Below the pieces are notes generated by a model that was given only the letters and a program-made list of their open reading frames with translations, was not told where the DNA came from and made no database searches. Shown piece after piece: positions 1,575 to 53,893 of a DNA stretch of 64,000 nt; within the stretch, counting starts at the first letter, position 1; each line of letters opens with the position of its first letter. This DNA is from Actinomycetes bacterium (GTDB taxonomy: Bacteria; Actinomycetota; Acidimicrobiia; Acidimicrobiales; JAMCPL01), in the NCBI GenBank assembly GCA_021841005.1, contig JAKBVZ010000010.1, positions 6,302 through 70,301 of the forward strand, read 5' to 3'. A program made the position numbers and the translations under genes.

Positions 1575-1696
1575 AAATATGTCCTCCTTCCTTGAACGAT
1601 TACCTTTCGTGATATACTCGCTAACGACCACTCATGTAAACTGGCGGTGCCGGTCAGCGCAGGCATCCACTCCTCGAATACATATCTATAATCTAC

Positions 1697-2713: not shown

Positions 2714-2789
2714 CCGCGGGATCCGCTGCGGCCACTATGTCGCTGCCCGTGTTCCTAGGAATGGTAGAGGAGATGCACGCGTGACCCGC
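2681..2789 (+). repeat. Degenerate hairpin element (2716-2751) flanked by a diverged ~35-bp direct duplication of the ABC ATPase stop / permease start junction
   Basis: 2681-2715 and 2752-2786 match at 28/35 positions (period 71). The core GCTGCGGC-CACTAT-GTCGCTGC has two stem mismatches. Confidence 0.75.
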
Positions 2790-14068: not shown

Positions 14069-14162
14069 ATACAACAATGGTAGCCGGAACGCGATGGTGG
14101 CCGGAACAGGCAATGCCCGGAACGCTCCGGAACGCTCCGGAACAGGATGCCATCCCGAACGC

Positions 14163-14191
14163 GTGAAAGTGCCCACAAGGGGCACTTTCAC
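14163..14191. promoter_or_regulatory. Perfect 12-bp-stem palindrome in the his operon leader
   Basis: GTGAAAGTGCCC-acaag-GGGCACTTTCAC, about 95 nt upstream of the proposed hisD start. Confidence 0.3.
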
Positions 14192-14382
14192 TTGACGCGT
14201 CAACGGGCGGCGGTTCCCGTATGACGCTCACTTGGGAACCTGGTGGCGGGAACCGGTTCCAAAAGACATTATAGCATCCCCGCCAGCCGCTGTCGAACAA
14301 ATACGATCAACGATTACAAAATATTGACCTAATGGTCAGTTGCAGGCATGGCTTCTTATGCAATACTGGTAACCTGATGCCC

Positions 14383-14484
14383 GGAGACCGCCAACCGCGC
14401 TATCACTGCAATAGCCGGCAAAGGAAAGACAGTGCTCCTGCATCGGCCTGTGCAGGAGACCGCCAACCGCGCTATCACTGCAAT
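14383..14484 (+). repeat. Perfect 30-bp direct repeat pair separated by a 42-bp unique insert (period 72)
   Basis: GGAGACCGCCAACCGCGCTATCACTGCAAT occurs at 14383-14412 and 14455-14484. The insert ends in CCTGTGCA. Confidence 0.9.
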
Positions 14485-14555
14485 GCCGGTAGGCCATCTT
14501 GCCACACTTCCCGGCTGCAGGAATTATTCTGCCTCCAGATGCGTTGTACAGGTAC

Positions 14556-16451: not shown

Positions 16452-16747
16452 AGACCTCCAATCTGCCCACTATGTAGCAACCGGCATGGCACGCCTACAG
16501 GCCACGCATCATTGCTCGGCATAACCCACGATCCGGCAACATGCGCCATGGGAGCAAGCAACATCGTATCGCCATACCCGCAGCACCGCACCGGCGGCAC
16601 TTCTCAATACAGTTTATCGCCTGGTTCGCATCTCGAATCGGTTGGGCATGAAAATCCTGATACGGGTGAGCAGGCTGGCGACGTTGCGCCCAAAATAGCT
16701 ATGATATCTTATGGTTCTTCGGTATCCGGCCAGTGGGACGTGCCCTG

Positions 16748-18397
16748 TCATGTCGTAACGCGTCTCACTCCTGGGACTTTGTCCAATAGCTCACCCGGAA
16801 TGTCCTCCTTATCGAGTCCGTCCTCATCCAACCCCGCATCCTCGACGCCGGCACCTATCCTGGCAGGAACAGCAATGGGATCCAGATCGTCCGGTGCATC
16901 ACCAGGGCGTATGCTCGCTTCCTCCATCACGTACTCCCCCTCTTCGGTACGGCTTAGGATGACGCTTCGCTTAGGCTCATCCGTCACGGGCATCGCCGCC
17001 AGCTCCTTGCAAATACGGTACGTCACAATGCCCACCACTACTGGCACAGCTATGACGAGAAACCGGAAGGACCACAAAACGGTATTGAGCGACACCTGGA
17101 AGAAATTGGCAAGCACATCCGTAGCGCTTGCGCTGAACAAAGTAAAATAAAACGCGACTCCTGCAGCTCCGAGCGCGGTACGCTTCGGCCTGTATCTCGG
17201 AAAGTCCAGGATGTTGTGCACAGCACGATCACCCGTTATCCTCGCCTCTACAAACGGCCACGCGTAGAACAGCGTAAAGGTGAGGCCAGGGAAGAGCACC
17301 GCCGGAAGCAGAACTTCGAGTGGAATAGTATGGCCAAAGCCGGTGAACTCCCAAGATGGCATGATTCTCATCGCCCCATCCAGCCAACCCATGTACCAGT
17401 CCGGCTGGACCGCATATGTAACCTTGTAGGGTTGGTAGGGGCCGTACTGCCAGATCGGGTTGATCTGGACGAGGCCACCAAGCATCCATAGCACGCCCGT
17501 GACGATGAAGAAGAGTCCCAGAGTCTTTGCCATGAACGTCGGGTACAGAGGCGATCCGACCACATTGTGCTCGGTCCTGCCCTTACCAGGAAATTGGGCA
17601 TGCTTCTGGCGAACCAGCATGAAGAGATGCGCCCCTATAAGAGCGGCAATGATGATTGGAACGATCAGCACATGGAGGATGAACATCCTCGGCTCAATGA
17701 TGCCGTTGCCAGGGAACACTCCCCCAAACAGGAAGAATGCCAGATAGGATCCGACCAGAGGTATCGACAGGATGATCGAGTATGCAATCCGAAGGCCGGT
17801 ACCGGAAACAAGATCGTACGGAAGGGAATAGCCCAGGAAGCCATTGACAATAGCCAGCATGAGCAGGGTGACGCCTACCATCCAGTTGAGTTCGCGAGGC
17901 TTGCGGAACCCTCCTGTGAAAAATATCCTCATCATGTGTATCGCTATGGCACCGACAAAGACATCGGCGGCCCAGTGATGCATCTGGCGAATCACCATAC
18001 CACCTCTCACGCTGAACGATATCTTGAGGGTGGATGCATACGCCTCCGACACCAGCTTTCCCCTCAATGGAGCGTAAGCGCCGTGATAGATAATCTCCTT
18101 GGTGGATGGCACGAAGTACAGCGATAGGAATACACCTGTAAGAACCAGCACGACAAAAGAATAGAGAGCTATCTCCCCGAGTAGGAAAGACCAGTGATCG
18201 GGAAAGATCTTGTCAAGGAGCGATCTACCCTTGCCAACCCCGAGCCTGTCGTCCAGCCAGCCGAGCGCACGTTCGGTAGCACTATCGAAACGCCCTTGAT
18301 GGCGCGCTCCAGTACCGCTGCCACCCGATCCAATGCCGACACTACTTGACCCCTGACCAGTAGTCGTTGACTCCTTGGATGTTGCCGTCTCGCTCAC
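16748..18397 (-). CDS. qcrB: Cytochrome bc1 complex cytochrome b subunit QcrB
   Basis: 549 aa polytopic cytochrome b. It sits in the qcrC-qcrA-qcrB order typical of actinobacteria. Confidence 0.9.
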   Translation of the reverse strand: MSETATSKESTTTGQGSSSVGIGSGGSGTGARHQGRFDSATERALGWLDDRLGVGKGRSLLDKIFPDHWSFLLGEIALYSFVVLVLTGVFLSLYFVPSTKEIIYHGAYAPLRGKLVSEAYASTLKISFSVRGGMVIRQMHHWAADVFVGAIAIHMMRIFFTGGFRKPRELNWMVGVTLLMLAIVNGFLGYSLPYDLVSGTGLRIAYSIILSIPLVGSYLAFFLFGGVFPGNGIIEPRMFILHVLIVPIIIAALIGAHLFMLVRQKHAQFPGKGRTEHNVVGSPLYPTFMAKTLGLFFIVTGVLWMLGGLVQINPIWQYGPYQPYKVTYAVQPDWYMGWLDGAMRIMPSWEFTGFGHTIPLEVLLPAVLFPGLTFTLFYAWPFVEARITGDRAVHNILDFPRYRPKRTALGAAGVAFYFTLFSASATDVLANFFQVSLNTVLWSFRFLVIAVPVVVGIVTYRICKELAAMPVTDEPKRSVILSRTEEGEYVMEEASIRPGDAPDDLDPIAVPARIGAGVEDAGLDEDGLDKEDIPGELLDKVPGVRRVTT

Positions 18398-19428
18398 GAG
18401 CGCTCCCAGAATCCAGGGCCGACCGGCTGGTCATAAGGTTGCTGCGCCCTGAGATACCCCTCAGAATCGATCATCAGCGGCAGTTGCGGCAAGGGCCGCG
18501 GGGCTGGTCCGAACACCGGCTGGGCACCGTCCAGCACGTCGAACATAGACTGGTGGCAAGGGCAGAGCAACTGCTGGGTCTGCTCCTGGTAAAGACCCAC
18601 CGGGCATCCTGCATGTGTGCAGACTTTTGAATACGCCACATACCCCTTGGGGGTCCAGGTCTCTCGCCCAGCCTTCGTGGTGAACGGGCTGGTGGAGGCC
18701 CTGAGCAGTACCGTCTGGTCCATGGCATTGCCCTCGTATCCGGGCGGGAACACCGTAATGATTCCACCAACCTCGAGATCATCTTCCTTGATCTTCCTGC
18801 CATGAATCGTTACAAGATATGACCCCTTTCTCCAGTTGGTCTTGTCAAGGGCCAACTTGGGCAATGGACCCAACGATCTGATTACCGGGAACGCAATGAC
18901 TACGCCAAGAATGCCTGCAGCGCCAGCCAGCATCTTCCCGAGGAACCCCCTGCGGCGCATCACGAGCTTGCCCCGATCTATGACTGCGGCCGCCATCTGC
19001 TCACGCTCGACATCGCTGGAACGCATATCATGGCGCTCCTCTACAAACGGCCCTCGCGGCAATAAATACTTTCCCCATGCAGCCAGTGCCGCACCTATGG
19101 CCAGCAACCCTATGCCCAACGTCAGCCCCTCCAACTGGGGTTGCCCGCCCTGCCAGTAAACCGCACCATATCCCGCAAAGCCCAGTGCCGCCAGCGCAAT
19201 CAGGAATGCTATCCATCTCTCCGTATGCCTGACGTTCTTGGCCGCAGGCCTAAGATGCGGATCATCCAGGGCCACTAGAGGCAATGGCGAGTCCGACACC
19301 TCACCATGATTCTCCGGTATTGGCCTATCGCCGCTCGCATGGCCCGGTACGTGGACTGGCTCATGAATCCGGCCACCGTCCGATTGCACACCCGTTTCCC
19401 TGTTCATCTGCGACAATCTCCTATCCAA
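18394..19428 (-). CDS. qcrA: Cytochrome bc1 complex Rieske iron-sulfur subunit QcrA
   Basis: Rieske motifs CTHAGCP and CPCHQS. It overlaps the qcrB start. Confidence 0.9.
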   Translation of the reverse strand: MDRRLSQMNRETGVQSDGGRIHEPVHVPGHASGDRPIPENHGEVSDSPLPLVALDDPHLRPAAKNVRHTERWIAFLIALAALGFAGYGAVYWQGGQPQLEGLTLGIGLLAIGAALAAWGKYLLPRGPFVEERHDMRSSDVEREQMAAAVIDRGKLVMRRRGFLGKMLAGAAGILGVVIAFPVIRSLGPLPKLALDKTNWRKGSYLVTIHGRKIKEDDLEVGGIITVFPPGYEGNAMDQTVLLRASTSPFTTKAGRETWTPKGYVAYSKVCTHAGCPVGLYQEQTQQLLCPCHQSMFDVLDGAQPVFGPAPRPLPQLPLMIDSEGYLRAQQPYDQPVGPGFWERS

Positions 19429-19474
19429 GAGGCAGTTCCCACTATCGACAATCTTCCACTCCAGACATCGGCGT

Positions 19475-20482
19475 TCATCTGCGATGATCTCCTATCCAGA
19501 AGGCGGCCAGCATCAGCACGCCAACTCCCACCAGTAAGGCGATGAACCCTTCCGCCACTGGACCCACTCCGCCAAGCGCCAGCCCTCCCCTATTGACAGG
19601 ATGCTGTATGTAACGAGTCACGTATGCATCTATGTCAGCCAGTTCCTTATTCGACAACTGTTTCGGGCTGAACCTGGGCATATTGCCAGGCCCCGTACGT
19701 GCCGCCTCTGCGACCTGGGTCTTGGTCGCCAGATGCAGCGTGGGAGCGAAGTACCCTGATCCAAGCGCATCGCCGGATCCGGTAATTGTATGGCAAGCCG
19801 CGCAGTTGAGCGCAAACAGCGACATACCTTGGCTCACGCTGACGTTTTGAAGGTTCACCTTAGGTATGCCAGGACCATTGACCTTTGACAGCGATGCCAC
19901 GAAATCGGCTATCTCCTGGGACTGCTTCGTCGTATATCTCGAAGGCTTGACGGCAGGCTGAGACGTCAGGTTTTCCAGCGGCATCCAGCCATTGGACACC
20001 CATAGATCCACGGTACCGGCACCCAGCCCCACCAGACTCGGAGCCCTGGAAGTACCGTATGCGTTGGCCCCATGGCAAGATGAACAGGTCGCCTCGAAAA
20101 GAACCCTGCCGGCAGCTTCATAGGACTTTCTAATCGTCTGGTAGGTGATCGGGCTACTACCACCGCTCGAAGTCACGCCACCTGGATTTGAACCACCTGG
20201 AGTCGCACTGCTCGAAGTCGCACCCTTGCCACCTGCCGGTTTACCACCTGCAAGCCAACCTGCCCGCTGCTTATCGCTTGGGCGCGCCTGCACATTAGAA
20301 GTCTTAGAATCACCCAAGGCTGAACCTGGCTTGTTGTGCGATGCTACACCAGGCGATACGGCAGCCATCGACAGAAGACCCCAAAGCGCAACCCCCAGAA
20401 CCACCATAACCGGGATGATCTTATGTATATTGCGTGTTGCCAGGCTTCCAGCCCTATCGTGGTCTCTCCGGTCCTTCCGCAT
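19475..20482 (-). CDS. qcrC: Dihaem cytochrome c subunit QcrC
   Basis: Two CxxCH haem-binding motifs (CSSCH, CAACH) and a C-terminal TM anchor. Confidence 0.9.
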   Translation of the reverse strand: MRKDRRDHDRAGSLATRNIHKIIPVMVVLGVALWGLLSMAAVSPGVASHNKPGSALGDSKTSNVQARPSDKQRAGWLAGGKPAGGKGATSSSATPGGSNPGGVTSSGGSSPITYQTIRKSYEAAGRVLFEATCSSCHGANAYGTSRAPSLVGLGAGTVDLWVSNGWMPLENLTSQPAVKPSRYTTKQSQEIADFVASLSKVNGPGIPKVNLQNVSVSQGMSLFALNCAACHTITGSGDALGSGYFAPTLHLATKTQVAEAARTGPGNMPRFSPKQLSNKELADIDAYVTRYIQHPVNRGGLALGGVGPVAEGFIALLVGVGVLMLAAFWIGDHRR

Positions 20483-21411: not shown

Positions 21412-24051
21412 TCAGCCGCGCGTTTCCAGATGGCTCAGCAACTTCGGCAACGTACCTGAATACACTACATAAAGTGCCTTGGTAGGCCGCGTCATCGCTA
21501 CATACAAGCTGCGCAGTCCCATGGGGTACTCATCTATGACACCTGCTGGATCTACGACAACCACTGTATCGAATTCCAGACCATTGGCCATCGCTGCGGG
21601 CACCACACTCAGCCCGGATGCCACGCCGGTACCACCGCTAACTTGCGTGACATCCCTTCCTACATTGCGAAGCGCTCCGGCAAGATCCTCGCAGAGTGAG
21701 GCAGGCGCAATCAAGGCGCATGTGCCCGCCGACTCCGGAGTGTATATATCTCCGATAACGCCAGCCACGCCTATCCCTATCTCCCCCTCCACCCTGATTG
21801 CGGCAGGACGTACACCCGCCACGCGAAGCGTTCTCGGGACAGTGCGCTCCACCATATACGCAGCAAGGACGGGTTCGGCTGCTTCCAGTATCTCTCGCGG
21901 TGTACGGTAACTCACCGTCAGCTCAACGACATCAATGGTCCTCTTCAAATGCATGTGAGCAAGCACATCGTTCCACGATGAAGGAGGGTCGGGACCCACT
22001 GCCTGCGCTATGTCCCCGGCAAGCGTCATGTCCCCCGAGAGGGAGCGCCGCGCTATGACACGCAACTCCATCGCAGAAAGCCCTTGGGCCTCATCGACCA
22101 CTATATAGCCATACTTCCTGGCTCGATCGTAGTCAGGGTGGCCACTAGCTGTGTAATGACCTGCCGGGCCGTGACGGTCATATGCACCAGGTCCACCGAC
22201 ACCAGCATGGGGCTTCCTCCTGGCTGCATTGCCGTCGAGTGGACCAAGCAGCGTCCTAGCCTCATCCAGCAAGGCTACATCCTCCTGCGACCATCGTGTA
22301 CGCGAGGAACTCGTGTACCCCTCCGTGCCCGTGCTGGCGTCTCCACATCGTCGTCTCTCCAGCAGCGCCAGTTCCTCTGGATGGAAGATCCCTTTCCCAG
22401 CTGCAGTAATAAGGACACTGGAACTGAAGAGATCGTAGAGGAACTCTTCTGCTGCCAGCCGAGGCCACATCCTGTCAAGAGCTATCTGCAGTTCCGGCAC
22501 TCTGAGCAAGCGACGGATCGTCCTGGCATCCAGCTCTTCCTGCGACACCAGTCCCTCTTCTTCGATCTCGGCTGGGAACGCTGTATCCGTACCTTCCACC
22601 CAAAGCCCACCAGACGCCTGATCGTCAGACGCCTGATCGTCAGCGCCGTCACTGCTTGGAGCGCTTCGGGCATCCGGAAAACCTTGGGAACCTTGGGAAC
22701 CTTGGGAACCTTGGGAACCTTGGGAACCTTGGGAACCTTGGGAACCTTGGGAACCTTGGGAACCTTGGGAACCTTCCATCTGCATGAGCATCGGACCATC
22801 CGTCTCCTGCTCAATGCAGGGCTCGATCTGGTCGCTGGAGATCCACCCCTCCGCAGCCTTATCAGGACGGACTTGCCTGACCCGGCTTGCTCTTTCCTTG
22901 TACTGTTCGAGCAGGTACCTGCATACCAGTGTTTCCAGGTACCGCCTCTTCACGTTGTGCGTTCCCTTGCGTGCTTTCACCTCTGCCACGAATCCAGCGC
23001 TTTGCGCAGCAGGGAGAACAAGCATGGTGGAACCGAAGGGTATCTCGCAATCATGCCGGAGGGGGCGCTGCCGGGTCCTCACGGCCCTACGTAGCAAAAC
23101 CGCCATACGAGCATCACCCTTGACCTTGGCGGTCATAAAATTATCCTTGTAGCTTGCCCGTATACCCCGTACAAGCCCCTGAACCGACGAGAGTGTGACG
23201 CCGCTCTCCCCCAGAGAAGGTAGTACGTGCTCTATATACCTCAAGAACACCGGGTTTGGGCCAACCACCAGCACGCCCTGAGTTTCCAGAGGAAACCGAT
23301 GAGTATAAAGAAGGTAAGCAGCCCTGTGCAATGCTACAGCCGTTTTACCGGTACCCGGCCCTCCCTGAACAACCAGAACTCCGCGGATGGGAGCCCTGAT
23401 TATTTCGTCCTGCTCGCCCTGTATGGTGGAGATCATGTCGCTCATACGTGAATCCCTTGGTCGTTCCAGCGCCGCAAGCAGGGCCCCAGGTGGCCCTGGA
23501 TCCACAACCTCCTCGCCGGCTCCGTTACCACCTTGCAACTCTCCGGCATCCGTCTCGAGCGAAAATCTTTCATCCTCGATAGATAGAACCTTCCGAGAGG
23601 CTACTTCTACGTGACGCCTCAGCACCAGCCCCATGGGATCCCGTCCAGTGGCGCGATAGAACGGCTCAGCGACGGGGGCTCTCCAATCGACCACCAATGG
23701 GTCCAAATTCTCATCCAGTATGCCCAAACGTCCGATATGGTAGGTTGCCTTGCCATCCTGTTCGCCTGACACATCGATGCGACCGAACAGAAGTGGCCTG
23801 TTGCCCACATCCGTCCGGGACATGGTACGCAAAATAGACTCAACCGCAGCATCACGTTCGAAACGCCCCTGGTGGGTACCTCCTCTATCCTGGCGGTACA
23901 GCCCAACCAGGCGCGATCTGGCACCAGCCGTCAGCTCTGCAAGCCTACGGTAGGCATTATCCAGATGAGCCTGTTCCAGAGCTATTTCTTGCGCCAAGGA
24001 TAGTTGCCGTGAAGAACCAGGAATGGTTTCACCCGTGCCAACGCCCTCCAT
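21412..24051 (-). CDS. helD: HelD-like UvrD-family helicase (RNA polymerase-associated)
   Basis: HelD N-terminal signature VVDWRAPVAEPFYRAT, Walker A GGPGTGKT and a UvrD C-terminal domain. It contains a (GSQ)10 insertion. Confidence 0.8.
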   Translation of the reverse strand: MEGVGTGETIPGSSRQLSLAQEIALEQAHLDNAYRRLAELTAGARSRLVGLYRQDRGGTHQGRFERDAAVESILRTMSRTDVGNRPLLFGRIDVSGEQDGKATYHIGRLGILDENLDPLVVDWRAPVAEPFYRATGRDPMGLVLRRHVEVASRKVLSIEDERFSLETDAGELQGGNGAGEEVVDPGPPGALLAALERPRDSRMSDMISTIQGEQDEIIRAPIRGVLVVQGGPGTGKTAVALHRAAYLLYTHRFPLETQGVLVVGPNPVFLRYIEHVLPSLGESGVTLSSVQGLVRGIRASYKDNFMTAKVKGDARMAVLLRRAVRTRQRPLRHDCEIPFGSTMLVLPAAQSAGFVAEVKARKGTHNVKRRYLETLVCRYLLEQYKERASRVRQVRPDKAAEGWISSDQIEPCIEQETDGPMLMQMEGSQGSQGSQGSQGSQGSQGSQGSQGSQGSQGFPDARSAPSSDGADDQASDDQASGGLWVEGTDTAFPAEIEEEGLVSQEELDARTIRRLLRVPELQIALDRMWPRLAAEEFLYDLFSSSVLITAAGKGIFHPEELALLERRRCGDASTGTEGYTSSSRTRWSQEDVALLDEARTLLGPLDGNAARRKPHAGVGGPGAYDRHGPAGHYTASGHPDYDRARKYGYIVVDEAQGLSAMELRVIARRSLSGDMTLAGDIAQAVGPDPPSSWNDVLAHMHLKRTIDVVELTVSYRTPREILEAAEPVLAAYMVERTVPRTLRVAGVRPAAIRVEGEIGIGVAGVIGDIYTPESAGTCALIAPASLCEDLAGALRNVGRDVTQVSGGTGVASGLSVVPAAMANGLEFDTVVVVDPAGVIDEYPMGLRSLYVAMTRPTKALYVVYSGTLPKLLSHLETRG
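22611..22640. repeat. In-frame tandem duplication, 15 bp x2, in helD (DDQAS x2)
   Basis: CAGACGCCTGATCGT occurs twice. Confidence 0.9.
22681..22776. repeat. Perfect 9-bp microsatellite (GGAACCTTG, ~10 units) in frame in helD, encoding (GSQ)10
   Basis: Nine perfect units at 22687-22767 plus partial flanking units. Confidence 0.95.
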
Positions 24052-26657: not shown

Positions 26658-28396
26658 TAGCCATCATAGGTGGGGGCATCTCCGGGCTGGTTGCCGCCAG
26701 ATCTCTGTCTATTGCCGCCCGCTCTGGCGAGTTTGGCGGAAATCTGGATGTCGATCTGTACGAAAGTACCGGTAGCCTTGGTGGCAAGCTCTCCAGCACC
26801 GATTTTGCGGGAGTAACCGTGGATACCGGACCTGAATCCTTCCTGGCTCGCCGTCCAGAGGCGGTAACGCTCTGCAGAGAACTCGGCCTCGAAGATCATC
26901 TTGCCCCCCCTGGAGCTTCTGGAGCATTCATAGCCATCGGCGACGATCTCAAGAGAATCCCATCCAATCTTGCCCTCGGAGTGCCAACACGCTTGGGACC
27001 GCTCGCACGGTCTGTATTGGAGCAACGTATATTGACTTTTCGTGGCATGTCCCGTTTTGCCGCTGGCTTCCTCTTACCCTCGCTACTTCCCGCGGACATC
27101 CACGTAGACGGACACCACTATCCAGCGTTCTCGCACACAGCCGCCGATGATGCAGATCTCGGGAGGCTGATCGAGCGGCATATGGGTCGCGAGGTCGCCA
27201 GGCACCTGGCTGATCCACTGATAGGGGGCATTCATGCCGGAAGCATCTATGGCATGAGCGCGGCAGCGGTGTTCCCTCCCATATTCGAAGCAAGCAAGGA
27301 ACGCGGCAGCTTGGCGGTCAATCTGGCTCGCAGGATGTCTGCCGGTGGACCTGCCAATAGCCGCAGCAAGCATCGCGACCATGACGCCGGTGACAACCAC
27401 CGTGCAAGCCCTGGTAGCAGTGGTGGCCCTAGTGTCAGCAACAGCTCTGGTAGTGCCGCGGCTCCTGTATTCTATGCCCTCGAGGGAGGCATGAGCACCC
27501 TGGTACGTGCGCTGGAGAATGACATAATCCACCGGGGAGTCACGATCCACAAAGATACACCTGTAGTTGCCGTGGACAGGCTCCGGGGCAAATGGCGTCT
27601 AGCTGTAAGTACACCCACGGGTACGGCTAAGCGAGCAGGCAGCAGTGGAAGTGGAAGTGGAAGTGGAAGTGGAAGTGGAAGTGGAAGTGGAACGGATGTC
27701 GGGGTAGTCACGGGGGCAACAGCAATGACGGGTGCAAGACAAGGTACAGACGCCAAGGAAAAAGGAGACGGCGGGAACAAGCCTGGCGGCGGCCAAGACA
27801 CCTACGACGGTATCGTACTTGCATTGCCGGCTGGTGCCGCAGGAAGGCTTATCCAGCCTATTGCTCCTGAGGTTGCCCGTATGCTGTCGAGAATACCTTA
27901 CGCCTCGGTATCCGTGGTCACCCTGCATGTCGAGCATCCGGCAGCGAACGACCTACCGGACGGCACAGGGTATGTCGTACCAGCAGACAGCGGGCAGATG
28001 GTAACGGCGTGTACGTTCCTCTCGAAAAAGTGGCCTCACCTCGCGACCGGTCGCGGGTCCCTCTTGCGAGTATCCCTCGGGCGCTACAGAGACAGCCGGC
28101 ATCTCTCCCTTGACAAGCAGGGCCTAGTCGAAACTGTGACTACCGAGTTGGAGCAGATGCTTCACCGGCATATCGATACCCGCGCTTCGCTCGTTACGCG
28201 TTGGATGGACGCTTTCCCACAATATCGTGTCGGGCACCTTGCCATGGTGGAGCAAATCCGCCGCACCCTTCCTGAGATCGGACCAGTCTCACTAGCTGGT
28301 GCAGCTTACGGAGGTGTAGGGATACCGGCATGCATCAAGAGCGGCCATGATGCCATGACATCCATCCTCGAACAGCTACGGAACGCCACATGGTAG
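26645..28396 (+). CDS. hemY: Protoporphyrinogen/coproporphyrinogen III oxidase (HemY/CgoX)
   Basis: FAD-binding N-terminus IAIIGGGISGL and HemY-family similarity. It follows hemE and hemH. Confidence 0.85.
   Translation: MGMRIAIIGGGISGLVAARSLSIAARSGEFGGNLDVDLYESTGSLGGKLSSTDFAGVTVDTGPESFLARRPEAVTLCRELGLEDHLAPPGASGAFIAIGDDLKRIPSNLALGVPTRLGPLARSVLEQRILTFRGMSRFAAGFLLPSLLPADIHVDGHHYPAFSHTAADDADLGRLIERHMGREVARHLADPLIGGIHAGSIYGMSAAAVFPPIFEASKERGSLAVNLARRMSAGGPANSRSKHRDHDAGDNHRASPGSSGGPSVSNSSGSAAAPVFYALEGGMSTLVRALENDIIHRGVTIHKDTPVVAVDRLRGKWRLAVSTPTGTAKRAGSSGSGSGSGSGSGSGSGTDVGVVTGATAMTGARQGTDAKEKGDGGNKPGGGQDTYDGIVLALPAGAAGRLIQPIAPEVARMLSRIPYASVSVVTLHVEHPAANDLPDGTGYVVPADSGQMVTACTFLSKKWPHLATGRGSLLRVSLGRYRDSRHLSLDKQGLVETVTTELEQMLHRHIDTRASLVTRWMDAFPQYRVGHLAMVEQIRRTLPEIGPVSLAGAAYGGVGIPACIKSGHDAMTSILEQLRNATW
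27647..27688. repeat. 6-bp microsatellite (GGAAGT x7) in frame in hemY, encoding (GS)n
   Basis: Seven perfect units. Confidence 0.95.
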
Positions 28397-30742: not shown

Positions 30743-30850
30743 ATGTCATACGCTCCAGTTACAGGTCGTTACAACGTTCTAGATACGCTACGGCCACTAT
30801 GCCGTAGCCCGGGGGAGATGCCATACGCTCCAGTTACAGGTCGTTACAAC
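30743..30850 (+). repeat. Variant hairpin element (30776-30817) flanked by a 33-bp direct duplication (32/33 identical, period 75)
   Basis: The duplicated sequence is ATG(T/C)CATACGCTCCAGTTACAGGTCGTTACAAC. The hairpin GCTACGGC-CACTAT-GCCGTAGC carries a compensatory stem pair. Confidence 0.9.
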
Positions 30851-33384: not shown

Positions 33385-33459
33385 CGGGAAGTAGCGCAGT
33401 TTGGTCAGCGCGCAGCGTTTGGGACGCTGAGGCCGGGGGTTCGAATCCCCCCTTCCCGA
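33385..33459 (+). tRNA. tRNA-Pro (anticodon TGG)
   Basis: Hand-folded cloverleaf: acceptor CGGGAAG/CTTCCCG, anticodon stem CAGCG/CGCTG with loop TTTGGGA, T arm GGGGG-TTCGAAT-CCCCC; 75 nt. Confidence 0.9.
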
Positions 33460-33547
33460 CCGCTACATCATCGTCAGTCCGCTGCGGCCACTATGCCGCA
33501 GCTCGTGCATGTTCGAATCCCCCCTTCCCGACCGCTACATCATCGTC
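33439..33547 (+). repeat. 35-bp hairpin element (33476-33510) flanked by a perfect 37-bp duplication of the tRNA-Pro 3' end plus trailer
   Basis: GTTCGAATCCCCCCTTCCCGACCGCTACATCATCGTC occurs at 33439-33475 and 33511-33547. The insert is AGTCCGCTGCGGCCACTATGCCGCAGCTCGTGCAT. Confidence 0.95.
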
Positions 33548-35276: not shown

Positions 35277-36992
35277 CTATCTTACTCTTGCACGAAGGCG
35301 CACACCGGGAATCAGCCGCGGTATATCTTCATCTGCATCTGCAATGGCTGTGCCGGCATGCTCCGTACCGGTGTCATTTGTGCCGGCATGCTCAGTACCG
35401 CCGACACCCAGCCGGAGCGCCTTATCCCTTACCGGTACCGGATACTCTCCGGTCAGGCAGGCGGTACAGAAACCTCCACCGGGCACTCCAATGGCCTTGT
35501 AGAGGCCTTCAAGGCTCAAGTAAGCGAGCGAGTCGACTCCCAGGTATCCTTCTATTTCTCTGACCGTCCTGTTGGACGCCAGCAACTCTGATCTCTCAGG
35601 GGTATCTATGCCATAAAAGCACGGCCACCGGAAGGGTGGGGAAGAGATACGTAAGTGCACCTCCCTGGCTCCTGATTCCTTGAGCATCCTCACCATCTCC
35701 CGGGTAGTGGTCCCTCTCACGATCGAGTCATCCACTACGACGAGCCGCTTCCCTGAGATGGATTCCTTCAGCGGGTTGAGCTTGCGCCTTACGCCTCTAA
35801 CCCGGGCCATCTGGCCAGGAGTGATAAACGTACGCCCGATATAGCGGTTCTTTACAAGTCCTTGGCCGTAAGGGATGCCGCTTGCCTTGGAGTAGCCCTC
35901 TGCTGCGGGGACACCCGAATCTGGAACGCCCATCACCATATCTGCACGAACGGGTAACTCGGCTGCCAGGTACTCACCCATCCTCCTCCTCGCCCCATGC
36001 ACCTCGGTTCCGTAAAGATTGCTGTCAGGCCGCGCAAAGTAGACAAACTCGAATATGCACAGGTGCGGATCGCCGGCTCCCGCAGGCGACAGACGCAGCG
36101 ACCGCACCCCGCCCGCATCTATCACCACCAATTCACCCGGCTCGATCTCACGCAGGAACCTTGCTCCGATCACATCCAGAGCAGGCGTCTCAGAGGCAAG
36201 GACATAGCCTGGTTCCCCACCTGCTACACCTACTCCACCCTCCAGAGGTCTGCTGCGGCCACTATGCCGCAGCCCGTGCACTGGTTCCCCACCTGCTACA
36301 CCTACTCCACCCTCCAGTCCACCTGGTACGCCTGATCCCCGCTCACCATCTCTGGATACACCGTTCGATCCATTACCTGGCAGCACACCGAGGCACAGCG
36401 GCCGGAAGCCGTCCGGATCCCTCGCTCCGAAGATATGCTTGGCATCCATCGCTACAAACGAGTAGGCACCCTGCAGCCTGGGGAGCACTTCCACCATCGC
36501 CGCTTCCAACAACCCATCATTACCGGTACCGGCTCCTGTCCCAGCCCCCCTGGACGCCATTGCTCGCACTACAGCCTTGGAAAGCAGCTCCATCACAAAA
36601 TCGGAATCGGTGGTCAACACCTCCGGTATCATCCCAGCTTCCAGCCCAAGCTCCTCCACGTTGGTCAGGTTGCCATTGTGCGCAAGAGCCAGTGAAGCAC
36701 TCCCGACCGACCTGAATACCGGCTGGGCATTCCGCCACGTCGAATCGCCGGCAGTGGAATAGCGAGTATGGCCTATAGCAATACTTCCCGGCAGGCAACC
36801 GATGGTGCGCTCGTCGAAGACCGACGATACGAGGCCCATGTCTTTCACTACGGTTACAAGCTCGCCGTCACTCACGGCCATACCTGCTGATTCCTGGCCA
36901 CGGTGCTGCAGTGAATACAGGCCGTCAAAAGTAAGCTGTGCCGCTCGATAACCGGGGGCATACACCGCAAACACCCCGCAGGCCTCCTTCAT
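35277..36992 (-). CDS. purF: Amidophosphoribosyltransferase
   Basis: Propeptide plus N-terminal Cys (MKEACGVFAV), PRTase motif VVVDDSIVRGTT. It carries a 72-bp in-frame insertion at 36209-36317 and a long C-terminal tail. Confidence 0.9.
   Translation of the reverse strand: MKEACGVFAVYAPGYRAAQLTFDGLYSLQHRGQESAGMAVSDGELVTVVKDMGLVSSVFDERTIGCLPGSIAIGHTRYSTAGDSTWRNAQPVFRSVGSASLALAHNGNLTNVEELGLEAGMIPEVLTTDSDFVMELLSKAVVRAMASRGAGTGAGTGNDGLLEAAMVEVLPRLQGAYSFVAMDAKHIFGARDPDGFRPLCLGVLPGNGSNGVSRDGERGSGVPGGLEGGVGVAGGEPVHGLRHSGRSRPLEGGVGVAGGEPGYVLASETPALDVIGARFLREIEPGELVVIDAGGVRSLRLSPAGAGDPHLCIFEFVYFARPDSNLYGTEVHGARRRMGEYLAAELPVRADMVMGVPDSGVPAAEGYSKASGIPYGQGLVKNRYIGRTFITPGQMARVRGVRRKLNPLKESISGKRLVVVDDSIVRGTTTREMVRMLKESGAREVHLRISSPPFRWPCFYGIDTPERSELLASNRTVREIEGYLGVDSLAYLSLEGLYKAIGVPGGGFCTACLTGEYPVPVRDKALRLGVGGTEHAGTNDTGTEHAGTAIADADEDIPRLIPGVRLRARVR
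36209..36317 (+). repeat. 35-bp hairpin element (36246-36280) flanked by a perfect 37-bp duplication, in frame inside purF
   Basis: CTGGTTCCCCACCTGCTACACCTACTCCACCCTCCAG occurs at 36209-36245 and 36281-36317. The insert is AGGTCTGCTGCGGCCACTATGCCGCAGCCCGTGCA. The 72-bp total equals 24 codons. Confidence 0.95.
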
Positions 36993-41934: not shown

Positions 41935-43932
41935 ATGACAAGCTCATTCTCTTGGAGGCTGCCCGAGAAGGACAAACCCTGGGTAATGAGAACCTACTCC
42001 GGGCATTCAAGCGCCGCCGCCTCCAACGAACTCTACCGTTCCAACCTCGCAAAAGGGCAGACGGGCCTTTCCGTGGCCTTTGACCTCCCGACACAGACCG
42101 GCTACGACCCGGATGAACCTGAGGCCAGGGGCGAGGTAGGCAAAGTCGGAGTTCCTGTTGTGCATCTTGGGCATATGCAGCAACTGATGGACTCCATACC
42201 TCTGGACAAGATGAACACATCCATGACCATCAATGCCACCGCACCATGGCTACTCAGCCTCTACATAGTACAAGCAGAGAACTCAGGCGTGGACCGGAGC
42301 CTGCTTACAGGAACCACGCAAAACGATATACTAAAAGAGTACCTGTCCAGAGGCGCATTCATATTCCCGCCGGCGCCGAGCCTGCGCCTTACCGTAGACC
42401 TGATCACCTACTCGGTGAAACACGTACCCAAGTGGAATCCCATGAACATTTGCGGGTACCACCTTCAGGAAGCCGGAGCAACCCCTTCTCAAGAAGTGGC
42501 TTACGCACTTGCCAATGCCATCGACGTGCTCGATGCCGTGAAGAGATCCGGGCAGGTGGATGACGACGACTTCCCTCGCGTCGTGGGTAGGATGTCATTC
42601 TTTGTCAACTCTGGGATAAGATTTGTGGAAGAAACCTGTAAGCTTAAGGCGTTTGCGGCCAATTGGGACAGGATATGCAGCGAACGTTACCACGTCACCG
42701 ATCCCAAGCTGAGACGCTTCCGCTATGGAGTGCAGGTAAACTCTCTTGGCCTCACCGAAGCACAGCCCGAGAACAACATCGCCAGAATCATCCTCGAAAT
42801 GCTGGGCGTAACCCTGTCGCGTTCTACAAGGGCGCGAGCAGTGCAACTCCCTGCATGGAACGAGGCACTGGGCTTGCCACGCAAGTGGGATCAGCAGTGG
42901 TCCTTGAGAATGCAGCAGGTCATGGCGCTGGAGACAGACCTACTTGAATACCCTGACATATTCGAAGGATCAAGAGTCATCGAGTCCGCGGCTGTGCACA
43001 TAGCAGAGGAAGCGTGGGCGGAGATGGAGGAGATCATCGCTCTGGGAGGCGCCTTCTCCGCAGTGGATGAGATGAAAATGCGCCTGGTTGCAAGCCAGCG
43101 CCGGCGGGTAAGCAGGATCGAATCGGGAGAGCTTCCGGTCGTGGGAGTCAACTGCCACCGCGAAACCGAGCCATCGCCCCTTGACAGCCGGGACGGCGCT
43201 GCAAACGTGCTCAAGGTAAATCCAGCCATGGAGAAGGAGTTGAGGGAAGAAGTGGAGAAATGGCGTTCCCGCAGGAACGCAAGAGATGTCACGCGAGCGA
43301 TCGATAGGTTGAAATATGCCTGCCAATCGGGAGAAAATATCATGGAAGCATCCATAGATCTCGCAAGAGCAGGTGGTACGACCGGCGAATGGGCAGGCAC
43401 GCTCCGGGACGTGTTCGGCGACTACAGAGCTCCTACTGGCGTCGGCGGCGCAAAGGTAAACGGCTCTCGTGAGGAACTCCGCACAGCGGCTGGTAAGGTA
43501 CGAGCACTATCCGCAGGCTCAGGATCCGCACCACGCATCCTGGTGGCAAAGCCAGGCCTGGATGGTCACTCCAACGGGTCCGAGCAGATAGCACTGGCCG
43601 CCAGGGATGCTGGCTTCGAGGTCATATATCAGGGGATCCGCACCACACCGGAACAGATAGCATCAGCCGCCAGGGATGAGGATGTCGACCTCGTCGGTAT
43701 ATCAATACTCTCAGGCAGCCACATGGAGCTCATACCGGAGATACTGGACCTGCTGGCCACCTCGGGCGTAAACGCCCCCGTAGTGGCCGGTGGGATCATC
43801 CCACCGGACGATGCCGCCATATTGATGCGTCAAGGTGTACGAGCCATATACACTCCCAAGGATTTCAAGCTTGGCGATATCATAAGCGATATGGCGGACT
43901 TGGTAAAGGAGTACCGTTCCATCCGGGCATAG
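41935..43932 (+). CDS. Fused acyl-CoA mutase (catalytic plus B12-binding domain; MeaA/ethylmalonyl-CoA mutase-like)
   Basis: PWVMRTYSGHSS and GTTQNDILKEYLSRG in the barrel, and a C-terminal B12 domain (KPGLDGHSNG); 665 aa. Confidence 0.75.
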   Translation: MTSSFSWRLPEKDKPWVMRTYSGHSSAAASNELYRSNLAKGQTGLSVAFDLPTQTGYDPDEPEARGEVGKVGVPVVHLGHMQQLMDSIPLDKMNTSMTINATAPWLLSLYIVQAENSGVDRSLLTGTTQNDILKEYLSRGAFIFPPAPSLRLTVDLITYSVKHVPKWNPMNICGYHLQEAGATPSQEVAYALANAIDVLDAVKRSGQVDDDDFPRVVGRMSFFVNSGIRFVEETCKLKAFAANWDRICSERYHVTDPKLRRFRYGVQVNSLGLTEAQPENNIARIILEMLGVTLSRSTRARAVQLPAWNEALGLPRKWDQQWSLRMQQVMALETDLLEYPDIFEGSRVIESAAVHIAEEAWAEMEEIIALGGAFSAVDEMKMRLVASQRRRVSRIESGELPVVGVNCHRETEPSPLDSRDGAANVLKVNPAMEKELREEVEKWRSRRNARDVTRAIDRLKYACQSGENIMEASIDLARAGGTTGEWAGTLRDVFGDYRAPTGVGGAKVNGSREELRTAAGKVRALSAGSGSAPRILVAKPGLDGHSNGSEQIALAARDAGFEVIYQGIRTTPEQIASAARDEDVDLVGISILSGSHMELIPEILDLLATSGVNAPVVAGGIIPPDDAAILMRQGVRAIYTPKDFKLGDIISDMADLVKEYRSIRA

Positions 43933-48760: not shown

Positions 48761-48871
48761 CGGTACAACCGCACCAGGCATTACGGGCAAGGCCACATAC
48801 CGATTGCAATTGGCTATGACGGCACGATAGAACTTCGGTACAACCGCACCAGGCATTACAGGCAAGGCCAC
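48761..48871 (+). repeat. 36-bp direct repeat pair (35/36 identical) separated by a 39-bp unique insert (period 75)
   Basis: CGGTACAACCGCACCAGGCATTAC(G/A)GGCAAGGCCAC occurs at 48761-48796 and 48836-48871. Confidence 0.9.
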
Positions 48872-49772: not shown

Positions 49773-52213
49773 GAGTGCCGGCCAACGACATCGACAATAT
49801 CCATCACACGAGGTATCTTACCTCTCCAGGTCCGATCGACATCGCTCATGTCGAGATCCACCAAACCGGCAATCACGACCCTCTCCCCGCCGGCAACTCC
49901 AAGCACAGCCGCAGGGATACCATTGCGTTCCGCCTCTCTTATAAGCGCTCTGGGATCATCCGTACAGGCGAGAACGCGCGAAGCCGATTCGCTGAAAAGC
50001 TCAGCATGATCCGAAACTCCCTCCACCGTCGCTCCTATGCCCGACCACAGGCAAAGCTCCGCCAGAGCTACGCCTATCCCACCCTCGGACACATCGTGAA
50101 CAGCGCTGACACTTCCTTCGCGTATACCCGACGCTGTCCCGGCCACTAGAGAGGCAATCCATCCCACAAGGCGACCATGAAATTCAAGATCCAGCTTGGG
50201 TGGAGCACCTCCTTTCCTGCCATACAAATCGACAGCCCACCTGGAACCTCCCAACCTGGTATCGGTGGTACCTAGCAGGACTATGTACCCGCCCTCGACA
50301 AGGCGAGGATGGGTAGGAACGCTGGACTTGCCTGCTTCCAATTTTCTCAGACCAAGCATTGTGACCACCGGCGTCGGATTTATGTCACGGCCGCCACTTT
50401 CGTTGTAAAGGCTTACATTGCCGCCCACCACGGGTACCGACAACGCCTTGCAGGCATCCGAAATGCCATCGACCGACCTTGACAGCTGCCACATGACTTC
50501 CTCGTGTTCCGGGTTGCCGAAGTTGAGGCAGTCGACCAGAGCGTAAGGCCGCGCACCCATACAGGCTACATTGATAGCGGACTCGGCCACTATATAAGCC
50601 GCACCGATATATGGATCGAGGGCGCACAGGCGCGGCGCGGAATCAGTGGAAAGCGCTATGGCCTTCGTACTTGCCGCCTCGGGCATACCCGGTACATCCA
50701 GCCTCAACAAGGCGGCATCTCCACCTGGACCTGCAATAGTCGCACACCAGAGCTGATGGTCATACTGCTCATATACCCATGCCGGATCTGCAAGCATACC
50801 CAGTATATCGTCACCTGCATCATCTGGAGGCGGGATTCCATCGGGATCATCCGCATCATGGTAATCATTGCGAGGCGGATACATTGGCCTGTCGTATATG
50901 ATGGCCCCATCAGCCAGGGAAGCAGCAGGCACATCGGCAACTACCTCACCCGTTTCACCATCTCTCACCACCAGCCTGCCGGTACCATCAGCTCCACCTG
51001 CAGACACTTTGCCGACAGCCACGGCCCTTACCTCGTGATGCCTGCAGACCTCCTCGACTATGAGCTGATCCTCTGGTGCCACTATGGCCAGCATCCTCTC
51101 CTGGCTCTCCGATGTCAGTATCTCCAGGGCGCTCATAGGAGTTTCCCTCAACGGAACCTTGGACACATCCACTTCCATGGATGTCCCCCCCCTCGCTGCA
51201 GTTTCACTGGTGGCACAGCTCAGACCGGCCCCGCCAAGGTCCTGCAGGCCCTGAAGAAGACCCCGACCGGCCAGGTCCAGGCAAGCTTCGATCAAGCGCT
51301 TCTCCTCAAAGGGATCTCCCACCTGTACGCTGGGCCGCTTGTCCTCGTCTCCTTCCCGGAAGCCGGAGGAAGCCAGTATGCTCACCCCTCCGATCCCGTC
51401 CCGCCCCGTGAGCGAACCGAGCAACACTGCAAGTCCTCCATCGTACGAAGCCTTGCCCAGGACTATGCGATCCTTGCGCACCACCCCCACGCATACCACG
51501 TTCACCAGAGGATTCTGCTCATAGCAGGGCAGGAACGTGAGTTCGCCGCCGACAGTAGGTACGCCCACAGAATTACCGTATGACGATATGCCGCTCACCA
51601 CTCCATCAAAGAGCATCTTCACGTGCGCGCCACCAAGATCCCCGAAGAACAACGGATCCATAAGGGCGATAGGCCGTGCTCCGACAGAGAGAATGTCTCG
51701 TATGATCCCACCGACTCCCGTTGCGGCGCCTTGCTTCGGCTCTACGGCGGATGGATGGTTGTGGCTCTCCATGCGGATGGCCACCGCCATTCCATCTCCC
51801 ACGTCCACCACCCCTGCATTCTCACCGGGACCAAGCAATACTTGAGGAGCATCTACAGGGAATCTCTTGAGGTGAATGCGGGAAGACTTGTAAGAACAGT
51901 GCTCGCTCCACATCACGCTGTACATAGCCAACTCAGCCGGTGAGGGCTCGCGCCCCAGTTCAGCAAGTAAGTGCTCATACTCCTCGCTGGTCATCCCCAG
52001 TTCTCTATAGAGGTTCGGCGGAATTGCCTCGCCGCGGAAGCCCGAGTATCCTGCTACCTCGGGTGAGACTACGGCCTGTTTCCCTCCTATCCGGGTAGGC
52101 GGCACACGCACACTCTCTGTGCTCTTCTCTACAGTTTCTATACGATCAGCCGTGGTTCGATCAGCCAGTATTTTAGCGGTCGGTATTCGGGTCTCCGATT
52201 CCATGCCTACCAT
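49769..52213 (-). CDS. purL: Phosphoribosylformylglycinamidine synthase subunit PurL
   Basis: PurL motifs (MWSEHCSYKSS, ESHNHPS, repeated AIR-synthase-like domains). The N-terminus is about 60 aa longer than usual. Confidence 0.9.
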   Translation of the reverse strand: MVGMESETRIPTAKILADRTTADRIETVEKSTESVRVPPTRIGGKQAVVSPEVAGYSGFRGEAIPPNLYRELGMTSEEYEHLLAELGREPSPAELAMYSVMWSEHCSYKSSRIHLKRFPVDAPQVLLGPGENAGVVDVGDGMAVAIRMESHNHPSAVEPKQGAATGVGGIIRDILSVGARPIALMDPLFFGDLGGAHVKMLFDGVVSGISSYGNSVGVPTVGGELTFLPCYEQNPLVNVVCVGVVRKDRIVLGKASYDGGLAVLLGSLTGRDGIGGVSILASSGFREGDEDKRPSVQVGDPFEEKRLIEACLDLAGRGLLQGLQDLGGAGLSCATSETAARGGTSMEVDVSKVPLRETPMSALEILTSESQERMLAIVAPEDQLIVEEVCRHHEVRAVAVGKVSAGGADGTGRLVVRDGETGEVVADVPAASLADGAIIYDRPMYPPRNDYHDADDPDGIPPPDDAGDDILGMLADPAWVYEQYDHQLWCATIAGPGGDAALLRLDVPGMPEAASTKAIALSTDSAPRLCALDPYIGAAYIVAESAINVACMGARPYALVDCLNFGNPEHEEVMWQLSRSVDGISDACKALSVPVVGGNVSLYNESGGRDINPTPVVTMLGLRKLEAGKSSVPTHPRLVEGGYIVLLGTTDTRLGGSRWAVDLYGRKGGAPPKLDLEFHGRLVGWIASLVAGTASGIREGSVSAVHDVSEGGIGVALAELCLWSGIGATVEGVSDHAELFSESASRVLACTDDPRALIREAERNGIPAAVLGVAGGERVVIAGLVDLDMSDVDRTWRGKIPRVMDIVDVVGRHS

Positions 52214-52331
52214 TATGGCCCAAAATCACCATTGGGGTACTAGGTGCCTGGCGTCGAACGACCGACGCCCCGAAAAAGGCAGCTGCTAACATGCTTGGTT
52301 CACCCAGCTATCTGATATTTGCAGGCTGGAA

Positions 52332-52360
52332 ACCGGCATGGCGGTATAGTGGTAATTTGC
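52332..52360 (+). promoter_or_regulatory. Conserved 29-mer with a -10-like TATAGT, upstream of nfo
   Basis: ACCGGCATGGCGGTATAGTGGTAATTTGC matches 56673-56701 at 27/29 positions. Confidence 0.4.
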
Positions 52361-52396
52361 TGACGGAGCAGGCGGGCAACGAAGTGAGATGGGCAG

Positions 52397-53350
52397 ATGA
52401 TTATCGGAGCACACGTAGGTACCAGTGGCGGGATTGCAAAGTCCGTGGAACGGGGAGCAGCAATGGGGGCGGGAGCGATACAGATATTCACCCACAACCC
52501 TCGTCAATGGCGGGGACCAGGGCTGGATGGTGTTGCCATAGAAGACCTGAAGAAGGCACTAGAAGCTGAACCTGCAATCGCCTCGATAGTCACCCATGTC
52601 ACCTACCTGGTCAATCTAGCCTCTCTGGACCCCGACATTTACGACCGCTCCAGGGTCAGCCTCGCATGCAATCTTGCGGCAGCTACGGCCATAGCCGCCT
52701 CCGGTGCGGTCCTGCATCCAGGCAGCCACAAGGGAGCAGGTTTCGAGAGTTGCAAGGCACGCATAGTGGATGGGATCTCCTGGGCCTTCGAGCATGCAGG
52801 CGACAGCCATATCGTTGGCGAGCAACTGGCCTACAGGGTAGCAGTGCAGGGTCAAGTCTCTACACTGCTACTGGAGAATACCGCTGGTGCCGGGGGAACG
52901 GTAGGCAGGAGCTTTGATGAATTGGCTACGCTGATCGAGATGCTCGATTCCAAGAGTCTATCTGGTCGCATTGGGGTATGCCTGGATACGCAGCACTTGT
53001 GGGCTTCGGGGAAGGACTACACATCAGTACCATCCGCTGACCACGTAATCGATGAATTCGACCAGGCCATCGGGCTGGACAAGCTGGAGTGCCTACACCT
53101 GAACGATTCCAAGGTTCCATGCGGAGCCATGCGCGATCGGCATGCCAATATCGGAGAAGGCATGATCGGAAAGCAGGGCTTGGCCGCCCTGCTGGGCCAT
53201 CCTCGCCTTGGTAGTCTCACTGCAATCCTTGAGGTGCCCGGTGACGGGCATGGACCCGACCGCAATCAGGTGGATATAGCAAGGGAAACCCTGGAACAAG
53301 GGATCGCAATGCGCGCTGGTTTGGCCAATGACGTCCAGCCAGGAGTATGA
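52397..53350 (+). CDS. nfo: Deoxyribonuclease IV (endonuclease IV)
   Basis: MIIGAHVGTSGG start and Nfo metal-ligand motifs (LHPGSH, LENTAG, CLDTQH, LHLNDS). Confidence 0.9.
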   Translation: MIIGAHVGTSGGIAKSVERGAAMGAGAIQIFTHNPRQWRGPGLDGVAIEDLKKALEAEPAIASIVTHVTYLVNLASLDPDIYDRSRVSLACNLAAATAIAASGAVLHPGSHKGAGFESCKARIVDGISWAFEHAGDSHIVGEQLAYRVAVQGQVSTLLLENTAGAGGTVGRSFDELATLIEMLDSKSLSGRIGVCLDTQHLWASGKDYTSVPSADHVIDEFDQAIGLDKLECLHLNDSKVPCGAMRDRHANIGEGMIGKQGLAALLGHPRLGSLTAILEVPGDGHGPDRNQVDIARETLEQGIAMRAGLANDVQPGV

Positions 53351-53500
53351 CAAGAGAAGGAACTGCGGATAATGGCGGTTAGGGCGCGTCGAAGGTCTTC
53401 TATTTGCCAGCGGCAGCATTATATTTGGGCTTCTGGTCGTACTGGCAATCGTGGCATTCGGGAGGTTGTTCTGACGGGGAATCCGTAGACGTCAGATATA

Positions 53501-53836: not shown

Positions 53837-53893
53837 ATGTCATCACAGGAAGCAGCTAGATGGCCCTCTACCAGCGTGGCCATCTATGGACAG

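Follow-up and report, generated by a model that had tools for sequence, protein, structure and literature searches.

The feature described here adjoins an intact tRNA-Pro(TGG) gene on the plus strand (33385–33461 by ARAGORN, 33385–33459 by Rfam RF00005, 70 bits) of the window, which is the whole stretch of 64,000 nt that was analysed. The 37-mer GTTCGAATCCCCCCTTCCCGACCGCTACATCATCGTC was found exactly twice in the window, as target copy X1 at 33439–33475 and as target copy X2 at 33511–33547, and had no match in 100 shuffles. A check of the edges showed that the bases adjoining either copy differ and that the repeat is exactly 37 bp long. The duplicated segment takes in the 3'-terminal 21 nt of the tRNA, ending with A33459 as the discriminator, and 16 nt of trailer, and between the two copies lies an insert of 35 bp (33476–33510, plus strand) made up of AG, a 32-nt core TCCGCTGCGGCCACTATGCCGCAGCTCGTGCA and a terminal T. 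An earlier note on this DNA had given the repeat, the letters of the insert and the extent of the duplication in the same way, and its claim that the tRNA stays intact with a 3' pseudo-fragment left downstream also holds: ARAGORN and Rfam both call a full gene, whose 3' end is held by X1, and the pseudo-fragment is contained in X2. As a single DNA strand, the insert folds into a stem-loop with 8 bp in the stem and 6 nt in the loop (33481–33502, dG -10.5 kcal/mol, z = -3.1). The earlier note had raised the possibility that this hairpin serves the tRNA as terminator or processing site; a simple scan identified no canonical intrinsic terminator there. In a 93 % identical relative (L018, reverse complement 1–2999) synteny with the window stops 28 bp past the tRNA-Pro repeat; at that breakpoint L018 lacks tRNA-Pro and has a PIN gene and a fragment of an ISL3 transposase. 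The locus appears to be a rearrangement hotspot.

A second event lies in purF (36209–36317, plus strand), with X1 at 36209–36245, a hairpin insert at 36246–36280 and X2 at 36281–36317; its geometry of 37 + 35 + 37 with a period of 72 bp is the same as at tRNA-Pro, as had been noted before. The DNA belongs to an uncultured actinobacterium of the Acidimicrobiales, as judged from its WhiB, QcrABC and F420 genes and from the names under which homologues are recorded. At 100 % identity, several public assemblies cover tens of kilobases of the window, which allowed both sites to be compared in filled and empty form. The tRNA-Pro site is filled in L003, L004 and L006 and empty in L002 (GCA_027390695.1, contig DAHYFH010000048.1), which carries a single 37-mer and no hairpin. 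Over about 21 kb around the site there are no substitutions among these assemblies, and the only other differences are microsatellite copy numbers. The absence in L002 is not an assembly collapse, because L002 retains the purF insertion. The earlier note had read the feature as a 35-bp insertion with a 37-bp target duplication, to be given up if related genomes proved to have a large integrated element between the repeats; L002 supplies the empty site, and no such element is present at any of the five loci found for the gene neighbouring tRNA-Pro. The purF site is empty in L017/P0001, with 100 % identity on both sides of a precise 72-bp gap and no substitutions over 13.4 kb; P0001 (547 aa) differs from the PurF of the window only in lacking exactly 24 residues. 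L017 is a Logan contig (k=31), for which loop collapse is not fully excluded; it breaks at the tRNA-Pro repeat instead of collapsing. The purF block is also absent in L018. Judged from the assemblies alone, the tRNA-Pro and purF events are so recent that their alleles still segregate among near-identical strains. Precise loss between the 37-bp repeats could also produce a filled/empty polymorphism, but the outgroups described below still show the filled state to be derived. The evidence for polymorphism rests on metagenome assemblies; one of them, L009 (GCA_023486005.1), contains window positions 51699–54374 twice in tandem, probably a misassembly.

A profile search yielded five copies of the hairpin in the window, starting at 33476, 36246, 30780 and 2719 and, on the minus strand, spanning 789–821. 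The first four are bracketed by local direct repeats unrelated between loci, which match at 37/37, 37/37, 32/33 and 28/35 positions, respectively. The conserved part of the insert is a 32-nt core, TCYGCTGCGGCCACTATGCCGCAGCYCGTGCA, which is open in five of the six reading frames. Both of the youngest inserts consist of the core plus 3 nt (AG...T and AGG...) and reach 35 bp. Their ends, AGTCC.../...GTGCAT and AGGTCT.../...GTGCA, are not reverse complements of each other, and the palindrome lies 5–8 nt inside them. The copy at 789–821 has no flanking repeat and fills a 49-nt gap between two convergent genes, an acyl-CoA synthetase (62–781, plus strand) and an NTP-transferase (831–1631, minus strand). 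It shares its 32-nt core without mismatch with the purF insert, and it is orthologous, though partly decayed, in the sister species. This is the oldest, ancestral copy and a possible source of the hairpin. The extra nucleotides of the young inserts have no counterpart in its flanks, and two bases separate the core at tRNA-Pro from that at purF, so that further source copies must exist elsewhere. Regarding conservation of the stem, there is one compensatory pair, but 66 of 500 shuffles equalled that value, and seven sequences are too few for such a test.

In a survey independent of the hairpin, all offsets between 20 and 1000 bp were scanned for self-similarity of the window (threshold 23 of 30 positions identical), with block-shuffled sequence as control. 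Outside two microsatellites, eight of nine local direct repeats had offsets of 69–75 bp, as against none or one in the shuffles. Seven of these eight are sharp-edged X-Y-X arrangements, in which a target X of 32–37 bp flanks an insert Y of 35–42 bp with a period of 71, 72 or 75 bp; in all seven, identity at the event offset falls to about 25 % directly outside X. The insert contains the hairpin core in four of the seven and is a unique sequence in the other three. A repeat in the B12-binding domain of methylmalonyl-CoA mutase (43582–43609 and 43651–43678, 24/28 nt, offset 69) was rejected as an insertion: it is colinear with PDB 2yxb and kept in the 93 % and 77 % relatives, an ordinary protein feature whose spacing is coincidental.

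Besides those at tRNA-Pro (X 37, Y 35, period 72) and purF, two events carry the hairpin. One lies between whiB and a parA/arsA-like gene (30743–30850, plus strand; X1 30743–30775, insert 30776–30817, X2 30818–30850; X 33, Y 42, period 75, repeats matching at 32/33), and its stem shows a compensatory change from G:C to A:T. The other is at an ABC ATPase/permease junction (2681–2786, plus strand; X1 2681–2715, decayed hairpin 2716–2751, X2 2752–2786; X 35, Y 36, period 71, repeats matching at 28/35), where X1 holds the stop codon of the first gene and X2 the GTG start of the second. The three events without a hairpin were found in the dsbA-hisD spacer (14383–14489; X1 14383–14418, unique insert 14419–14454 ending in CCTGTGCA, X2 14455–14489; X 36, Y 36, period 72), at the qcrC/qcrA junction (19402–19504; X1 19402–19433, unique insert 19434–19472, X2 19473–19504; X 32, Y 39, period 71, repeats matching at 28/32) and between a PHP-domain gene and tRNA-Phe (48761–48871; X1 48761–48796, unique insert 48797–48835, X2 48836–48871; X 36, Y 39, period 75, repeats matching at 35/36). 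At the qcrC/qcrA junction the stop codon of qcrC is retained in one target copy, and the ATG of qcrA comes from the other. The event at 48761 is also present in the 99 % identical strain L008. Target copies decay asymmetrically after insertion, as seen at 2681 and 19402.

Three of these older sites can be polarised by relatives with an unfilled site. A single target copy is found for the 30776 site in the 77 % relative L019 and for the 14383 site in the sister species (L022), and for the 19402 site the outgroup L026 has a single qcrC/qcrA junction with ATGA overlap, the ancestral state. This comparative evidence shows five of the seven events to be derived insertions; for the other two, 48761 and 2681, insertion is inferred from the shared geometry alone, the genes around the latter being absent from the relatives. 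The anatomy of the tRNA-Pro feature, the occurrence of multiple independent events, the direction of insertion and its recency are thus matters of observation.

The period is exactly 72 bp in the five youngest events (37+35, 37+35, 36+36, 39+33 in L026 and about 33+39 in L001), X and Y trading off against each other. Two explanations fit: an underlying geometry of 36+36 in which boundary bases match by chance, or a ruler that sets X and Y together. No conserved tetranucleotide is present at the left junctions of the seven events, which end in CGTC, CCAG, GACC, CAAC, CCGG, AGGC and CCAC, and no shared motif among the seven targets was obvious by inspection. Four of the seven inserts start with AG. 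A decayed 72-bp tandem duplication was rejected because the repeat edges are sharp, and a tandem duplication or minisatellite of the MIRU type because similarity does not extend over the whole unit and the empty alleles lack Y altogether.

The non-hairpin inserts contain no palindrome. As cryptic copies of the hairpin they can be dismissed, their overall similarity to it not being significant (p = 0.09–0.27) and only short end motifs being common to both. Among the four such inserts (14419–14454, 19434–19472, 48797–48835 and 15869–15901 of L026), three have AG(G/T)TC(C/T) close to one end and two have (C/G)GTGCA close to the 3' end; the sharing of these motifs with the hairpin, at an anchored p of about 0.015, is suggestive only. 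The insert at 19434–19472 is similar to the target in which it lies (CGACAATC-TCC..TCCA; p = 0.005 in a series of 28 tests), and the adjoining target copy carries the same ACA variant; this likeness may represent a short conversion tract. As a general rule such a resemblance was rejected, since it is true for 19434 only. A viral origin of the unique inserts was likewise not supported: four 20-mer scans of a viral collection gave three null results and one match, which is 21 nt long, lies in an AT-rich contig and is explained by chance. As for the hairpin itself, no Rfam family and no source in known phages or plasmids were found, a 20-mer from it had no match in metagenome or viral contigs, and a degenerate 21-mer had two matches, both chance hits lacking the 5' arm.

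Within purF, which lies on the minus strand, the event adds 24 codons in frame, encoding VHGLRHSGRSRP and a second LEGGVGVAGGEP in a surface loop, 24 codons being the equivalent of one 72-bp period. B. subtilis PurF (PDB 1ao0) has 2 residues where the PurF of the window has 57. The loop (36246–36330) is a lineage-specific expansion, L018 lacking a further 51 bp including the 37-bp target. At its 3' end (35349–35400) purF also carries a 30-nt tandem duplication, by which a GT.D/EHAGT peptide is repeated and which is present in the 93 % relative as well. Because the whole target is duplicated, its function survives in one copy, and this explains how the insertions could survive at two gene junctions, in the PurF loop and in the 3' end of the tRNA. 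Two further repeats in coding sequence are in-frame microsatellites, one of them, (AACCTTGGG)n, in the gene for a UvrD-like helicase that has a collagen-like stretch (22680–22778), the other, (GTGGAA)n, in an amino-oxidase gene (27644–27691); these and the 72-bp insertion are the only differences between the otherwise identical assemblies. The region 11570–14203 holds a hisD-hisC fusion, an 877-aa ORF combining histidinol dehydrogenase and aminotransferase, which was also found in the 77 % relative L025.

Beyond the window, a period-72 hairpin event is present in the sister species GCA_023379675.1 (L001), in frame within a gene for a YkuD-type transpeptidase. A lineage about 76 % identical carries a young 39 + 33 event with a period of 72 (L026/L028) and a decayed hairpin (L027), and no events were seen in 37 kb of the relatives L018 and L019. 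An exact hairpin 22-mer occurs in one of 185,579 species-representative genomes, that of L001. No gene for a mobile-element enzyme was found in the window or the sister contigs, where the genes are of housekeeping type; the window contains no Y1 transposase, no integrase lies near the tRNA-Pro event, and neither a cas1/cas2 gene nor a CRISPR array was detected in the roughly 150 kb examined (window and related contigs). L019 carries a genuine Cas9 N-terminal fragment on its minus strand (TIGR01865, E = 1e-137), truncated in the HNH motif, from which it follows that CRISPR systems exist in the clade. This fragment adjoins an ISL3 fragment and has a tracrRNA-like region upstream, and a TnpB C-terminal fragment lies in the intergenic region orthologous to the 30776 site of the window; the L019 coordinates for these Cas9, ISL3, tracrRNA-like and TnpB features are 302–2227, 2228–2720 and 16604–16912. 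Literature searches found no published description of an element of this kind.

Taken together, the tRNA-Pro feature is probably a recent insertion of a non-autonomous cassette of about 35–36 bp, here with a conserved hairpin of 8-bp stem, that was mobilised in trans. Integration by staggered nicks and the trans-acting enzyme are inferences, and no enzyme has been identified. The reading also rests on few events, seven within the window and two outside it. Machinery encoded elsewhere in the genome would attach a short duplex by both ends, one to each target strand, at sites separated by about 36–37 bp, in a concerted reaction linking both 3' ends of the duplex to target phosphates. Repair of the two single-stranded gaps would then copy the target on both sides and leave X-insert-X with a period of 72 bp. 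With the whole target of about 37 bp duplicated, the encoded function, be it a tRNA 3' end, a stop/start pair or a protein loop, would be kept in one copy, and insertions inside genes would be tolerable, 72 being a multiple of 3 and the core being open in most frames. Since the persistence length of DNA far exceeds 35 bp, a duplex of this size is too stiff for its ends to meet; a stagger of about one insert length is therefore to be expected. The events need no local gene and lack terminal inverted repeats, a target tetranucleotide and junction microhomology; that the geometry is nevertheless fixed across different inserts and lineages argues for a protein ruler acting in trans. Against a simple stagger-plus-insert scheme speaks that the period of 72 is more constant than either X or Y, so that such a scheme needs chance boundary matches. 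It is also unclear whether one element family or one process indifferent to the insert is at work, as three inserts in the window and that of L026 are not hairpins. A Cas1-like enzyme is a possible engine, for which we would claim no more than tentative support, and an undescribed enzyme is about equally plausible.

The rival that survives best, which is a more specific form of the cassette reading and which on balance we doubt, is off-target integration of spacers outside arrays by the Cas1-Cas2 of the host, the X-Y-X units being natural 'neo-CRISPR' units and the hairpin a recurrently captured prespacer. CRISPR repeats are commonly 36–37 bp and spacers commonly 35–36 bp long, which corresponds to the 36–37 bp of the duplications and the 35–36 bp of the inserts seen here. 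To our knowledge, no described reaction other than spacer integration by Cas1-Cas2 has this geometry: it inserts a short duplex (about 30–40 bp), duplicates about 28–37 bp of target through staggered nicking and gap repair, accepts varying insert sequences and does without terminal inverted repeats. The unrelated inserts of common geometry agree with this, as do the values of 37+35, 37+35 and 36+36 in the window and 39+33 in L026 at a period of 72; the AG at the start of four of the seven inserts could be derived from a PAM, and a relative within the clade has a true, albeit truncated, Cas9 gene. Off-target Cas1-Cas2 integration with duplication of a repeat-length target is documented (Nivala 2018, as cited in PMC6698737 and in bioRxiv 10.1101/148544). 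What the off-target reading does not account for is that the same hairpin was inserted repeatedly, in four of the seven inserts and once in the sister species, rather than diverse foreign DNA, and at sites scattered in core genes instead of beside a leader. Seven events in 64 kb would moreover be an extraordinary off-target load, and no cas genes or arrays were seen in the DNA examined. Type II arrays usually have spacers of about 30 nt, which would give a period of 66 and not 72. Nor is there a convincing viral match for the unique inserts or a junction motif common to the targets. By analogy the hairpin cassette thus matches Cas1-Cas2 integration in its geometry; that it belongs to that system has not been demonstrated.

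Improbable, in our judgement, is template switching of the FoSTeS/MMBIR kind at a stalled fork or break without a dedicated enzyme, by which about 35 nt would be copied from a hairpin donor before about 37 nt of the original template are copied a second time. Forks could stall at the hairpin, or nascent ends could be drawn to it; the ancestral unflanked copy could act as donor, and the likeness of the 19434 insert to its own target would be in keeping with such copying. The young events, however, have no microhomology at their junctions (GCAT|GTTC and GTGCA|CTGG versus GGGG and TAGC upstream), and the 2–3 nt at the insert ends do not match the candidate donor at 789–821. Nor would template switching predict a fixed period of 72 bp across nine events in three lineages.

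Still less support remains for the hairpin as a minimal MITE moved by a DDE transposase of the IS1634/IS1549 type, an explanation that we regard as very unlikely. This is the only transposon group known to us for long target duplications, and ISL3 and TnpB fragments show IS activity in the clade. IS1549, from an actinobacterium, and IS1634 make direct repeats of 8–514 bp, but they are autonomous elements of kilobase size and their duplications vary between copies (PMC2266710), whereas the element here measures 35 bp and its duplication is fixed at about 36–37 bp with a period of 71–75 bp. The insert ends are not inverted repeats, the palindrome being internal, the non-hairpin inserts have no palindrome at all, and no transposase of the IS1634 family was seen.

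Other families of small dispersed elements share individual traits with the cassette. MITEs are likewise small, non-autonomous, flanked by target-site duplications and polymorphic between strains; they measure roughly 50–500 bp, with terminal inverted repeats at their very ends and duplications of 2–10 bp, in contrast to a 35-bp insert without terminal inverted repeats and a duplication as long as the element (32–37 bp, 39 bp in L026), and a MITE was rejected on these grounds. REP/REPIN sequences (moved by RAYT transposases of the HUH Y1 kind) and PATEs (derived from IS200/IS605) are short, GC-rich, dispersed hairpins, non-autonomous and acted on in trans, and the position of the oldest copy (789–821) between convergent genes is reminiscent of REPs. 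Neither kind duplicates its target on insertion, and PATEs enter 3' of a fixed tetranucleotide. The present events differ in their 36–37-bp duplication, the lack of a conserved target tetranucleotide and insertion inside genes. A REP/REPIN-RAYT system was rejected since four of the five copies have long duplications, one of them lies inside purF, no inverted pairs occur and the window lacks a Y1 transposase; PATEs were rejected since the left junctions vary and a duplication accompanies each event. Rickettsia palindromic elements and the small dispersed repeats of Nostoc are tiny and palindromic and sometimes sit in frame in coding genes. Their sequences are unrelated to the hairpin, and we know of no long target duplication described for them.

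The weakest alternative, that the repeats are attL/attR remnants of an element later deleted to 35 bp, draws on the facts that tRNA 3' ends are classical att sites and that synteny with L018 breaks 28 bp past the repeat beside the ISL3 fragment and the PIN gene, but it can be excluded, because the same core recurs at four other window loci and one sister-species locus, in all but one case with unrelated repeats of about 33–37 bp (the same 35-bp insert and geometry in purF and at non-tRNA loci each having different repeats), an exact empty allele exists on identical DNA in L002 and there is no integrase nearby.

We know of no mobile element or repair process described as making such insertions. 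Returning to the cassette mobilised in trans, it is conceivable, at rather less than even confidence, that it represents a previously undescribed class of mobile DNA, a unit of about 36 bp that has no terminal inverted repeats, encodes nothing, duplicates as much of its target as it is long itself and is active now. Its mobiliser might be an unknown integrase of the ruler type, or the unit might be a 'selfish spacer' hijacking CRISPR adaptation proteins; in the latter version repeat-spacer-repeat units, i.e. seeds of proto-CRISPRs, would be scattered through core genes. If Cas1-Cas2 is the engine, this would be the first natural, high-frequency integration of the spacer type outside arrays, and the origin of new CRISPR arrays would become directly testable; if it is not, an integrase with a ruler of about 36 bp is still to be found. 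CRISPR finders likely file such X-Y-X units as 'questionable' arrays of two repeats.

If confirmed, the cassette would be among the smallest mobile DNA units known and the first with a target duplication equal to its own length, a geometry that explains its harmless landing in a tRNA gene, in an overlapping stop/start pair and in an essential enzyme. It would also constitute a mutational process by which proteins gain blocks of 24 codons and translationally coupled genes are split apart. Among these near-identical assemblies insertion polymorphisms outnumber point substitutions, and on the same tentative reading of an undescribed class the cassette would be active at present in a natural population of Acidimicrobiales.
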